Shown here piece by piece: positions 20,130 through 53,523 of a stretch of 64,000 bases of DNA. Made by a program: the position numbers and the translations under genes. A model generated the notes under the pieces. It did not search any database. It worked only from the letters and a program-made list of their open reading frames with translations, and was not told the DNA's origin. The first letter of the stretch is position 1. Each line of letters opens with the position of its first letter. Location: the NCBI RefSeq assembly GCF_055900595.2, contig NZ_CM148325.1; one strand, given 5' to 3'.

Positions 20130-20159
20130 TACGTTCGCCAAACGCTGAATAAATCATCA

Positions 20160-20196
20160 CGCCCGCCAGGTAAGCCCACCTGGCGGGCTTTTTTAT
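20160..20196 (+). terminator. Rho-independent terminator downstream of citT
   Basis: gcccgccaggtaagcccacctggcgggc stem followed by TTTTTT. Confidence 0.8.
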
Positions 20197-20242
20197 GATT
20201 TAATAGATAGTATTCAGTGTATGTATGAGTTCCACACCCATT

Positions 20243-21049: not shown

Positions 21050-21196
21050 TCCTCTGATTTACAAAAGACGCTAATTCGTCTTCCATAAACTATGACGATT
21101 AAGATTTATACATAATGCGCTGCATTGAGGAATTCCCTGAATGTGACGCAAATCACTTCAAAGAGTGAGCAACAGTCAGTATCATCATGTGAGTTA

Positions 21197-21230
21197 AACC
21201 CTCGCCGCCTGACGGTGAGGGTTTTCTTTT
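21197..21230 (+). terminator. Putative rho-independent terminator between rna and rnk
   Basis: aaccctcgccgcctgacggtgagggtt hairpin followed by a T-rich run. Confidence 0.55.
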
Positions 21231-21278
21231 GGGTATGTTTATCTGCGACACTCGCAGTACCGACGACATGGAGTAAAA

Positions 21279-30361: not shown

Positions 30362-31450
30362 ATGCCTCACAATCCTATCCGCGTCGTCGTTGGCCCTGCT
30401 AACTACTTTTCTCATCCCGGCAGTCTCAATCACCTGCATGATTTTTTCACTGATGAACAACTTTCTCGCGCAGTGTGGATCTACGGTGAACGTGCACTTG
30501 CCGCGGCGCAAACCAAACTTCCATCGGCGTTTGAACTGCCAGGAGCAAAGCATATTTTGTTTCGCGGTCATTGCAGTGAAAGCAATGTGCAACAACTGGC
30601 GGCTGAGTCCGGTGACGATCGCAGCGTGGTGATTGGCGTCGGCGGCGGCGCACTGCTCGACACCGCGAAAGCCCTCGCCCGCCGTCTCGGTCTGCCGTTT
30701 GTTGCCGTTCCAACGATTGCCGCTACCTGCGCTGCCTGGACACCACTCTCTGTCTGGTACAACGATGCCGGACAGGCGCTACATTATGAGATTTTTGACG
30801 ACGCCAATTTTATGGTGCTGGTGGAACCGGAGATAATCCTCAATGCGCCGCAAGAATATCTGCTGGCAGGAATCGGTGACACGCTGGCGAAATGGTATGA
30901 AGCGGTGGTGCTGGCTCCTCAGCCAGAAACGCTGCCGCTAACCGTGCGGCTGGGAATCAATAATGCGCAGGTCATTCGCGACGCCTTGTTAAACAGTAGC
31001 GAACAGGCGCTTGCCGATCAGCAAAATCAGCAGTTAACGCAATCATTTTGCGATGTGGTCGATGCGATTATCGCCGGAGGCGGAATGGTCGGTGGTCTGG
31101 GCGATCGTTTTACGCGTGTGGCGGCGGCCCATGCCGTGCATAACGGTCTGACCGTTTTGCCGCAAACCGAGAAGTTTCTCCACGGCACCAAAGTCGCCTA
31201 CGGAATTCTGGTGCAAAGCGCCTTGCTGGGTCAGGATGATGTGCTGGCGCAATTAACCGGGGCGCATCAGCGTTTTCATCTGCCGACCACGCTGGCGGAG
31301 CTGGAAGTGGATATCAATAATCAGGCAGAGATCGACAAAGTGATTGCGCACACCTTGCGTCCGGCGGAATCCATTCATTACCTGCCGGTCACGCTGACAC
31401 CAGATACGTTGCGTGCAGCGTTCGAAAAAGTGGAATCGTTTAAAGTCTGA
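30362..31450 (+). CDS. ybdH: Hydroxycarboxylate dehydrogenase (iron-containing alcohol dehydrogenase family)
   Basis: 362-aa ORF MPHNPIRVVVGPANYFSHPGSL... matches YbdH; GGGxxxD NAD motif. Confidence 0.9.
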   Translation: MPHNPIRVVVGPANYFSHPGSLNHLHDFFTDEQLSRAVWIYGERALAAAQTKLPSAFELPGAKHILFRGHCSESNVQQLAAESGDDRSVVIGVGGGALLDTAKALARRLGLPFVAVPTIAATCAAWTPLSVWYNDAGQALHYEIFDDANFMVLVEPEIILNAPQEYLLAGIGDTLAKWYEAVVLAPQPETLPLTVRLGINNAQVIRDALLNSSEQALADQQNQQLTQSFCDVVDAIIAGGGMVGGLGDRFTRVAAAHAVHNGLTVLPQTEKFLHGTKVAYGILVQSALLGQDDVLAQLTGAHQRFHLPTTLAELEVDINNQAEIDKVIAHTLRPAESIHYLPVTLTPDTLRAAFEKVESFKV

Positions 31451-31459
31451 CGTACAGAT

Positions 31460-31657
31460 TTAGCAGCAGCGCGCGCCACCTTTTCCACCGTAGCGCGCGT
31501 CCTGCCGCTCACGGAAAAACTCCTCGTAGGTCATCGGCGTTTGATCGGGATGGTTAACCCGCATATGTTCGACATAGTTGTCGTAATCGGGCATACCAAT
31601 CATCAGCTTCGCTGCCTGACCTAAATATTTTCCGGCTTTTGCCAGTGAATCAAACAT
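31460..31657 (-). CDS. ybdD: Small DUF466-family protein YbdD, encoded with cstA
   Basis: 65-aa [33 protein letters not shown]...; GGAGG 5 nt upstream of the ATG. Confidence 0.85.
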
Positions 31658-31721
31658 CAATACCTCCGGTAATCAGATTGCTGAGAGAGTGCATTAATAG
31701 CTATCAACGCGCTCGGTCAGT

Positions 31722-31793
31722 CCCCTCGCCCCACCGGGGAGAGGGTTAGGGTGAGGGGGAACCCTAGGCACTACGCCAACATCCCCCTCACTC
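31722..31793. repeat. GC-rich imperfect-palindromic intergenic element between cstA and ybdD
   Basis: cccctcgccccaccggggagagggttagggtgaggggg...ccccctcactc: repeated CCCCTC/GAGGGG units able to form alternative hairpins. Confidence 0.55.
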
Positions 31794-31798
31794 TGACT

Positions 31799-33904
31799 TT
31801 AGTGCGCGCCTTTCGCCTGCGCCACGATCTCCTCGACATTTTCCGGCATTGGCTCATACGGCGTTTCTTTCGCCGTTGGCTTCGGCTCTTTCAATGCCGC
31901 CAGTGCCGTCTTAATCGAGAACAGCGCCAGAACCACCACGACCACCATAAAGAAGATGGTTAACCCGGCATCCAGACGGTTGTTGAACACCAGTTGCGCC
32001 AGTTGTGACTCAGTATACTGCGACGGAATATTGCCGCTGTCGATCATTGCCTGGAACTTGTTAGCAATCGCCAGGAAACCGACTTTCGCATCCGGGCTAA
32101 ACGCTTTCTGCCAGCCTGCGGTCAGGGTACAAATCAGCAGCCAGGCCGTTGGTACCAGCGCCACCCAGGCGTAACGTTGACGTTTCATTTTGAACAACAC
32201 CACGGCACAGAGCATCAGCGCCATCCCTGCCAGCATCTGGTTGGCAATACCAAACAGCGGCCACAGAGTGTTAATACCGCCCAGCGGATCGACCACGCCC
32301 TGATGCAGGAAGTAGCCCCACGCCAGCACGCACAGCGCCGTTGCCAGCAGGTTAGCAGGCAGTGAATCGGTCCGTTTCAGACCCGGAGAAACCACGCCCA
32401 GCAGATCCTGCAACATAAAGCGCGCAGCACGCGTACCTGCATCCACCGCCGTCAGAATAAACAGTGCTTCAAACAGAATGGCGAAGTGATACCAGAACGC
32501 CACATCCATCATGCCGCCCAGCGCACCGTGCAGAATGTAGGCCATCCCCACCGCCAGCGTCGGCGCACCGCCCGCACGGGAAATGATCGACTGTTCACCC
32601 ACTTCGCTGGCAATCTGATTTAACGTATCTGGCGTAATGCTAAAGCCCCAGCTACTCACTACCTGCGCAGCAGATGCCACTACATCCGCCGTCCCCGCCG
32701 GAGCCAGCACCGCCATCGGGCTGTTCATCGCGAAGTACACGCCCGGATCGATGATACAGGCAGAAACCAGTGCCATAATCGCCACGAAGGATTCCATCAA
32801 CATCCCGCCGTAGCCGATAAAGCACGCCTGACCTTCGTTCGCCAGCATCTTCGGTGTGGTGCCGGAAGAGATCAGCGCATGGAAGCCAGACACCGCGCCA
32901 CAGGCGATAGTAATAAACAGGAACGGGAACAGATTACCGGTCCATACCGGGCCAGTGCCATCTACAAACTTGGTCAGCGCAGGCATGGTCAGCGTCGGAC
33001 GCATAATCAAAATGCCTACCGCCAGACCGACGATAGTCCCGATTTTCAGGAAGGTAGAGAGGTAGTCACGCGGAGCCAGCAGCAACCACACCGGCAGAAC
33101 CGCCGCCACAAAACCGTAACCCACCAGCATCCAGGTCAGCTGCACGCCGGTAAAGTCAAAGTACGGTGCCCAGGTCGGGCTTTCTGCCACCCAGCCGCCA
33201 GAGATAATGGCGAAAATAAGGAATACCAGGCCAATCACCGACACTTCCCCAATGCGGCCTGGACGCAGATAGCGCAGGTAAATCCCCATGAACAGCGCCA
33301 GCGGAATGGTGAACGCAACGGTATACGTTCCCCACGGGCTATGAGTCAGGGCTTTCACCACGATCATCGCCAGTACTGCAAGAATAATGACCATGATCAT
33401 AAAGCAGGCCACCAGCGCAATCACCCCGGCGGTTGGCCCCATCTCTTCTTTAACCAGCTCGCCCAGCGAGCGACCGTCACGGCGCGTGGAAACAAACAGC
33501 ACCATAAAATCCTGCACCGCACCGGCGAGAACCACCCCGGCAAGTAGCCAGATCATCCCCGGTAGGTAGCCCATTTGCGCCGCCAGTACCGGCCCCACCA
33601 ACGGGCCTGCTCCGGCAATGGCCGCAAAATGGTGACCGAACAGCACTTTCTTGTCCGTCGGCACATAGTCCAGCCCGTCGTTATGGCGCACCGCTGGCGT
33701 CATACGCGTCGGGTCAACCGCCAATACATTTTTGGCAATATAAAGACCATAAAAACGGTAAGCGATCAGATAGATACAGACCGACGCTACCACAATCCAC
33801 AGCGCGTTGATCTGTTCCCCACGATTTAAAGCAATGTATCCCAGAGCAAATGCTCCCATTACAGAGAGCACTGTCCAGACGAGGTATTTCCCTGATTTGT
33901 TCAT
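31799..33904 (-). CDS. cstA: Carbon starvation protein A (pyruvate/peptide transporter family)
   Basis: 701-aa polytopic membrane ORF matching CstA. Confidence 0.94.
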   Translation of the reverse strand: MNKSGKYLVWTVLSVMGAFALGYIALNRGEQINALWIVVASVCIYLIAYRFYGLYIAKNVLAVDPTRMTPAVRHNDGLDYVPTDKKVLFGHHFAAIAGAGPLVGPVLAAQMGYLPGMIWLLAGVVLAGAVQDFMVLFVSTRRDGRSLGELVKEEMGPTAGVIALVACFMIMVIILAVLAMIVVKALTHSPWGTYTVAFTIPLALFMGIYLRYLRPGRIGEVSVIGLVFLIFAIISGGWVAESPTWAPYFDFTGVQLTWMLVGYGFVAAVLPVWLLLAPRDYLSTFLKIGTIVGLAVGILIMRPTLTMPALTKFVDGTGPVWTGNLFPFLFITIACGAVSGFHALISSGTTPKMLANEGQACFIGYGGMLMESFVAIMALVSACIIDPGVYFAMNSPMAVLAPAGTADVVASAAQVVSSWGFSITPDTLNQIASEVGEQSIISRAGGAPTLAVGMAYILHGALGGMMDVAFWYHFAILFEALFILTAVDAGTRAARFMLQDLLGVVSPGLKRTDSLPANLLATALCVLAWGYFLHQGVVDPLGGINTLWPLFGIANQMLAGMALMLCAVVLFKMKRQRYAWVALVPTAWLLICTLTAGWQKAFSPDAKVGFLAIANKFQAMIDSGNIPSQYTESQLAQLVFNNRLDAGLTIFFMVVVVVLALFSIKTALAALKEPKPTAKETPYEPMPENVEEIVAQAKGAH

Positions 33905-38962: not shown

Positions 38963-39101
38963 TTTTCGGTCGCTAACCTAAAAGCAAACGAGCACTATGT
39001 CAACTCTTGAGGTAATGCAATCTGCAAGTCGGGGTTGCATCTGCTTGTGGTTACAATGAAAATGAGAAGCATTAACTTCATTAATAACAGGAAGCTGATT
39101 T

Positions 39102-53358: not shown

Positions 53359-53397
53359 TGCTAACGTCAGATTGTTGACAAAGTGCGCGTCGTTCAT

Positions 53398-53496
53398 GCC
53401 GGATGCGGCGTGAACGCCTTATCCGGCCTACAAAAATCTTGCCAATTCAATATATTGCAGGATAGTGTAGGCCTGATAAGCGTAGCGCATCAGGCA
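53398..53496. repeat. REP/BIME pair (inverted REP units) between fepA and entD
   Basis: gccggatgcggcgtgaacgccttatccggcctac ... gtaggcctgataagcgtagcgcatcaggca: canonical enterobacterial REP sequence. Confidence 0.85.
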
Positions 53497-53523
53497 GTTT
53501 TGCGTTTGTCATCAGTCTCTAAT

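Follow-up and report, generated by a model that had tools for sequence, protein, structure and literature searches.

Judged by its sequence, the GC-rich block between cstA and ybdD in the stretch of DNA analysed here (64,000 nucleotides, hereafter the window) is one copy of BoxC, the repeat also named PIT, TMECO, and HPG1. We hold with considerable confidence that this known element, read as a passenger repeat, is the best explanation of the block as a whole. BoxC, which has been described since the 1990s, is a short, noncoding, and solely intergenic element of Escherichia coli and related Enterobacteriaceae; an E. coli chromosome bears roughly one to three dozen dispersed copies. Both the family and the K-12 copy at cstA-ybdD are already known from the literature.

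The cstA-ybdD spacer and its BoxC copy

The region from 31400 to 32000 is 100% identical to DNA of E. coli strain EC42405. Based on the open reading frame list and RefSeq annotation (of identical DNA in the case of cstA), both genes lie on the minus strand: cstA (31799..33904) encodes a pyruvate/proton symporter, and ybdD (31460..31657) encodes a 65-aa small protein of the YbdD/YjiX family. We placed the ybdD start at the ATG at 31657, as RefSeq does for this 198-nt gene; an in-frame TTG at 31660 is a further possible start. The spacer thus spans 31658 to 31798. Its length is 141 bp, or 138 bp if counted from the TTG, and differs from the 137 bp given in a preliminary description of this DNA. 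The same description had pointed to a GC-rich quasi-palindromic block in the spacer, and this is indeed present on the plus strand at 31722-31793, where 72 nt have a G+C content of 68% (51% for the whole window) and contain inverted repeats. The ybdD leader outside the repeat (31658..31703, minus strand), delimited from the sequence and from spacer alignments, holds a Shine-Dalgarno sequence, GGAGG (31667..31663), that precedes the ybdD ATG by 5 nt. This leader is also the position of a REP element in K-12-type strains and of a small hairpin in TOE51-type strains. A 70-aa GTG-initiated open reading frame on the plus strand (31751-31963) begins within the third block of the repeat and lies antisense to the cstA 3' end; we take it to be spurious.

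The assignment to BoxC is supported by a sequence-only profile built from nine aligned K-12 type-A copies, all from other loci and with their flanks included. It matched the window at 31704-31772 on the plus strand (61.2 bits; E = 3e-18; model positions 10 to 78 of 89), a segment that is a complete type-A repeat unit. Since the match extends into the flanks, the conserved unit reaches beyond the triplex-motif core by ~19 nt 5' of it (..CGCGCTCGGTCAGTC) and by ~14 nt 3' of it (GAAC..GGCACT). A 21-mer from the motif was expected 0.00 times in shuffles of the window, and together with the profile E value this shows that the motif is not a chance feature. No second full copy was found in the 64-kb window by profile search with filters off. 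A weak match at 21199-21223 (E = 0.5) is an ordinary terminator (CCCTCGCCGCCTGACGGTGAGGGTTTTCTTTTGG) and not BoxC; the intrinsic terminator from which this spurious match arises lies in 21190-21235 (CCCTCGCCGCCTGACGGTGAGGG followed by TTTTCTTTT). Another intrinsic terminator lies in 20130-20224 (CGCCCGCCAGGT..ACCTGGCGGGC followed by TTTTTT).

Within the unit, the TMECO/PIT core CCCTCGCCC-CACCG-GGGAGAGGG-TTA-GGGTGAGGG-G occupies 31723..31758 on the plus strand. The consensus of Holder et al. 2015 (PMC4666352), CCCTCNCCC N3-6 GGGNGAGGG N3 GGGNGAGGG[GTC-], matches exactly as a regular expression at 31723-31757, with the G at 31758 in addition; the same authors identify TMECO with the element earlier named BoxC and PIT. 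The copy is of subtype "A mm", with TTA as the second loop (GGGAGAGGG-TTA-GGGTGAGGG) and one mismatched stem position where CCCTCGCCC lies opposite GGGAGAGGG. This is the commonest type in K-12, in which 13 of the 23 copies have a TTA loop and one stem mismatch (PMC4666352). The motif was rediscovered by Kaplan et al. 2016 (PMC5100583) as a putative G-quadruplex group, HPG1, and the window copy has the features of that group as well: four G-runs of at least three G each (GGGG AGA GGG TTA GGG TGA GGGGG; GGGGAGAGGGTTAGGGTGAGGGGG) at 31736..31759 on the plus strand, short loops, a TTA middle loop, and a C-rich 5' flank. Table 1 of that paper lists the K-12 copy as HPGQ no. 19 ("cstA >>> 51 / midpoint 632058 / strand - / 108 >>> ybdD"). 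Table 1 of Holder et al., with its 23 K-12 copies, omits cstA-ybdD, likely because the third block is mutated to GGGTGAGAG in K-12; it is intact in the window.

The preliminary description had likened the block to dispersed enterobacterial repeats, which agrees with its membership in BoxC and with the number of copies. When an 82-nt query was compared by BLAST with 5,426 complete E. coli genomes, matches were found in all but one (5,425), with 2 to 32 places in each genome (median, 18); 90,780 places are on chromosomes and 67 on plasmids. The motif is therefore not unique in the genome. In the list of Petrillo et al. 2008, BoxC has a length of 56 bp and 32 copies. Besides the exact consensus fit, the conserved flanks, the intergenic position, and the multiple copies, the window copy resembles other BoxC copies in lying at a strain-variable locus and, possibly, in a layout that recalls a partly deleted inverted pair. 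It differs only in strain-level details: its first loop, CACCG, is absent from the 23 K-12 copies of Holder Table 1 (PMC4666352), its third block is intact where K-12 has GGGTGAGAG, and it has no neighboring REP.

REP/BIME elements have much in common with BoxC, both being short intergenic repeats with a GC-rich palindromic sequence and frequent transcription at gene 3' ends, but they belong to another sequence family. No REP consensus, GCC(G/T)GATGCG..CG..C(G/T)(C/T)ATC(C/A)GGC, was found in the spacer of the window, and a regular-expression scan matched only at 53398-53427. That match falls in a BIME-like REP pair at 53359-53523 (GCCGGATGCGGCGTGAACGCCTTATCCGGCCTAC and an inverted GCCTGATAAGCGTAGCGCATCAGGC), which lies in a same-strand spacer with a folding z score of -7.1. 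REPs have a dedicated transposase family (RAYT); no such family is known for BoxC. A scan of 31300-32200 against Rfam 15 with E values up to 10 returned no family at its gathering threshold. The best match, to the eukaryotic antizyme frameshift element Antizyme_FSE (E = 0.08; 21.2 bits, with the threshold at 40), was judged a chance match, and the others, to a microRNA and a snoRNA family, are at chance level. In RefSeq records, the feature given under BoxC matches is "none".

Inverted repeats, predicted folding, and a likely partner remnant

Several pairings are available to the block. One inverted repeat joins CCCCTCGCCC (31722-31731) and GGGTGAGGGG (31749-31758), which are 90% complementary; a longer one, of 16 nt, joins GTTAGGGTGAGGGGGA (31745-31760) and TCCCCCTCACTCTGAC (31782-31797), which are 88% complementary; and a third option pairs the adjacent blocks CCCTCGCCCC and GGGGAGAGGG. 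The spacer RNA (minus strand) folded at -65.1 kcal/mol (z = -4.1), and none of 200 shuffles did as well, with tools that consider Watson-Crick pairs only. When the 44-nt core was folded alone, the distal blocks paired, whereas in context the proximal blocks paired and the distal block went into a second hairpin, H1, formed by the 16-nt inverted repeat. The alternative stable hairpins envisaged in the preliminary description are thus borne out by prediction. Separate folding gave -26.4 kcal/mol for H1 and -23.3 kcal/mol for the BoxC core. On the mRNA strand, H1 starts 7 nt past the cstA stop codon.

The position of H1 suggests an origin for the second arm. In K-12, type-A and type-B copies often occur as inverted pairs whose third G-blocks face each other over a spacer of ~26 nt. 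In the window, CCCCCTCAC at 31783-31791 sits where the third block of such a partner would be, and the segment between the arms, GAACCCTAGGCACTACGCCAACAT (31759..31782), when set side by side by eye, looks similar to the GAACAGCCAGCACTGGTGCGAACATT-type stretch that in K-12 separates a type-A from a type-B copy at fepB-entC, ygfF-gcvP, and alx-sstT. We therefore read the CCCCCTCAC arm, by its position and context, as the likely remnant of a largely deleted inverted partner, of which only the third G-block is left (31783..31797, minus strand; reverse complement, GTCAGAGTGAGGGGG). This candidate remnant forms the outer arm of H1, pairing with 31745-31760, and the cstA stop codon lies 1 nt before its conserved sequence. 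Compared alone with the BoxC profile, the remnant matched at 31779-31797 on the minus strand (model positions 51 to 69) with an E value of 2.3, which is not significant, so that the reading rests on position and context. Seen in this way, the 16-nt inverted repeat is likely the center of a former BoxC pair. Holder et al. (PMC4666352) reported that partial deletions of TMECO pairs leave a hairpin, and the anatomy of the window copy, a type-A unit with a putative remnant hairpin, corresponds to that outcome.

H1 was retained in all seven Escherichia alleles that we compared, with 96.8% of cells paired, and its substitutions among them are G-U compatible. For H1 and the BoxC hairpin together, 97.5% of cells were paired in the seven alleles, but covariation is uninformative here, since there were no double changes and column shuffles scored as well as the observed alignment.

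Spacer forms in E. coli and related species

Among seven aligned E. coli strains, the cstA-ybdD spacer was 112, 113, 141, 172, 181, or 182 bp long. We counted the forms in the 5,426 complete genomes, requiring at least 80% of a given spacer in one place. The K-12/O157 type, with both REP and BoxC (172 to 182 bp), was found in 3,699 genomes (68%). The window type, with BoxC and without REP (141 bp), was found in 374, only 10 of them at 99% identity or more; at the REP position of the K-12-type alleles, the window reads CATTAATA. The third type, represented by TOE51 and AR_0077 (112 to 113 bp; 1,189 genomes, or ~22%), has no REP and has lost ~30 bp of the BoxC hairpin, and a different small hairpin adjoins its ybdD ribosome-binding site. 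A comparison of this spacer across strains, as the preliminary description had proposed, is thus informative, with at least three common forms. The YbdD protein was WP_000460431.1 in all six annotated genomes sampled, which carried the REP-plus-BoxC and truncated forms.

Smaller differences were also seen. The third G-block has one G-to-A change in K-12 and a different one in strain M1 (alignment columns 140 to 150), each of which breaks the triplex and G-quadruplex pattern and would stay a G-U pair in H1. In K-12-type alleles, the TTCGCCAACA segment in the H1 loop is duplicated. Elsewhere in the genus, E. albertii, E. whittamii, and the cryptic clades have H1 and a REP and are without the BoxC hairpin part.

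BoxC presence also differs at fepB-entC, 7 kb from cstA-ybdD, where K-12 has an inverted type-A/type-B pair and the window has an empty site (39072-39074). The difference amounts to ~183 bp. In K-12 each junction has a TAA, and the window has a single one; the TAA could be a target-site duplication or could reflect a deletion between short repeats. Such filled and empty sites between strains, along with small size, noncoding nature, and palindromic sequence, recall miniature elements of the ERIC/IRU type (MITEs). BoxC differs from MITEs in having neither the terminal inverted repeats of a known transposase nor demonstrated mobility. It has no sequence similarity to ERIC, and no Rfam family matches it. 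Holder et al. (PMC4666352) found TMECO loci in general to be more variable than control sites.

A scan for YbdD in species-representative genomes gave 80 loci, 70 of them with a usable cstA-ybdD spacer. A stem of at least six consecutive pairs was present in 67 of the 70 spacers; the median z score was -3.3, and 81% of the spacers had z < -2. Of 13 other same-strand spacers in the window, which served as a control, 7 had z < -2 as well; because structured spacers are this common in the window, the cross-species excess is only modest. The source of the stem-loop differs by species and includes single or paired BoxC copies, CCCTC..GAGGG hairpins, REP-like palindromes, and terminator-like hairpins. 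Full TMECO copies occurred in 12 species spacers, 5 of which had a head-to-head pair, unlike the tail-to-tail layout that we infer for E. coli. A bare CCCTC..GAGGG hairpin was found in ~20 species (Citrobacter, Salmonella arizonae, Kosakonia, and others), and these hairpins could be decayed BoxC copies. Several other genera have a T-run after the spacer hairpin, and three species have spacers of 14 to 20 nt without a hairpin. In the paralogous pair btsT-yjiX of K-12, the spacer is 49 nt long and contains AGCCCCGC-TTCG-GCGGGGCT, a hairpin resembling a terminator, with TTGTTCTT after it; for transporter and small-protein gene pairs of this family, an intervening leaky terminator may be the norm.

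Two records in the scan stood apart taxonomically. YbdD proteins of the Enterobacteriaceae type (98% and 89% identity) came from Streptomyces sp. DH24, on a 465-bp contig, and from a MAG labelled Bacillota, whose spacer contains an Enterobacter-like REP and a BoxC copy. Both records look like contamination or mis-binning.

Passenger repeat or functional element

The BoxC copy at cstA-ybdD is most likely a passenger repeat that persists or spreads at the DNA level, a reading that we adopt as a default and not as a demonstration. Under this reading, the element would render its surroundings prone to small insertions and deletions, and such instability would explain why the spacer exists in several forms. 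Transcripts crossing the spacer would fold into a stack of two hairpins, with H1 close behind the cstA stop codon and then a BoxC hairpin of 9 to 10 bp. The copy would be dispensable for ybdD expression and would not terminate transcription. At most, the hairpins may block 3'-to-5' exonucleases and so shield the cstA portion of the message, as is known for REP elements. REP elements stabilize upstream mRNA, as in the case of malE-malF; the BoxC hairpins may have a mild effect on mRNA stability.

A role through DNA structure is possible, although we think it rather unlikely. In such a case the G-rich strand, when single stranded, would form an intrastrand purine-motif triplex or switch between a G-quadruplex and a hairpin, stalling polymerases and so regulating the neighboring genes or creating a hot spot of mutation or deletion. 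The core fits a motif whose consensus oligonucleotides form a very stable triplex as isolated strands (circular dichroism and nuclear magnetic resonance; melting at 70 to 82°C), and the excess variation of TMECO loci over control sites points in the same direction (PMC4666352), as do the four G-runs of the HPG1 quadruplex pattern, the variable length of the cstA-ybdD spacer, and the third-block G-to-A changes by which K-12 and M1 differ. However, the same study obtained only duplex DNA when the complementary strand was present, its in vivo dimethyl sulfate footprinting gave no support for a stable triplex, and, in its summary of earlier in vivo tests of PIT, replication, transcription, and conjugation were unaffected. 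At this locus, moreover, the G-rich strand is the template strand of both cstA and ybdD, so that the transcript carries the C-rich strand, which can form ordinary hairpins only and cannot carry the purine motif. As for the variability, it may just be that spacers in which change is tolerated collect repeats.

The remaining alternatives place the function in the RNA. It is unlikely, in our estimation, that the hairpins are a putative RNA element setting the cstA:ybdD ratio through stabilization of cstA mRNA, through polymerase pausing or partial stopping, or through RNase processing, with the repeat recruited for its stem-loop. A dedicated role of this kind is putative and a matter of speculation. 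The strong predicted fold of the spacer RNA, the stem-loops from unrelated sequences in 67 of 70 related species, the hairpin followed by TTTGTTCTT in the paralogous btsT-yjiX spacer, and the retention of H1 with G-U-compatible changes in all Escherichia alleles compared all speak for it, and a scan of 31300-32200 that found no sigma-70-like promoter fits read-through transcription across the spacer. Cotranscription of cstA and ybdD is itself an assumption, and Hwang et al. 2018 and Gasperotti et al. 2020 provide no data on it or on the spacer. Against such an element, no U-run comes after either hairpin (ACTGACCGAGCGCG is what succeeds the BoxC hairpin on the mRNA strand), and reporter tests of PIT at other loci (Hoyne and Maher 2002) gave neither promoter nor terminator activity, according to the summary in PMC4666352. 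Strain variation argues in the same sense, in that 1,189 genomes lack the BoxC hairpin and 3,699 have a REP beside it while YbdD is the same in the genomes sampled; so do the hairpinless spacers of three species, the fraction of other same-strand spacers in the window that fold as well (7 of 13), and the lack of compensatory double changes in H1, for which column shuffles equal the observed alignment. The proposal of the preliminary description that the block modulates ybdD by partial termination, processing, or mRNA stabilization accordingly finds no support in our results, given the absence of a T-run and of a promoter, the truncation of the hairpin in ~22% of genomes, the REP in 68%, and the identical YbdD in six of six genomes. 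More doubtful still is a broader version, in which the cstA-ybdD and btsT-yjiX spacers need a stem-loop that different lineages supply with BoxC, REP, CCCTC..GAGGG hairpins, or leaky terminators; E. coli would then have recruited its BoxC copy as an RNA element, and the CCCTC..GAGGG hairpins of Citrobacter, Salmonella, and Kosakonia would be what is left of old BoxC copies, reduced to the hairpin. Even so, the stem-loops in 67 of 70 spacers, the btsT-yjiX hairpin, and the retention of H1 are compatible with selection for some stem-loop, a role that BoxC might fill.

We regard it as highly improbable that the hairpins are a Rho-independent terminator of cstA and that ybdD is transcribed from its own promoter. 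The stem-loop is GC-rich and lies directly downstream of a stop codon, as intrinsic terminators and attenuators do, beginning 7 nt past the cstA stop, and terminator-like hairpins occupy the equivalent position in btsT-yjiX and in several other genera, where a T-run follows. RegulonDB, as quoted in Table 1 of Kaplan et al. 2016 (PMC5100583), also lists cstA and ybdD as separate single-gene units. The window hairpins differ from terminators in that no T-run follows either of them, and our scan of 31300-32200 found no terminator-like site (a hairpin plus a T-run) on the plus or the minus strand, nor any sigma-70-like promoter in the stretch from the hairpins to ybdD.

The cstA-ybdD copy belongs to an element with four separate published descriptions, each under a name of its own, and it had already been tabulated in K-12. 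RefSeq shows no feature at BoxC, so readers will probably go on rediscovering it, and the practical value of the present identification lies in annotation. The three common forms of the spacer are natural allele sets with which the effect of BoxC and REP hairpins on a downstream small-protein gene can be compared, and the clean empty site at fepB-entC could help address how BoxC spreads.
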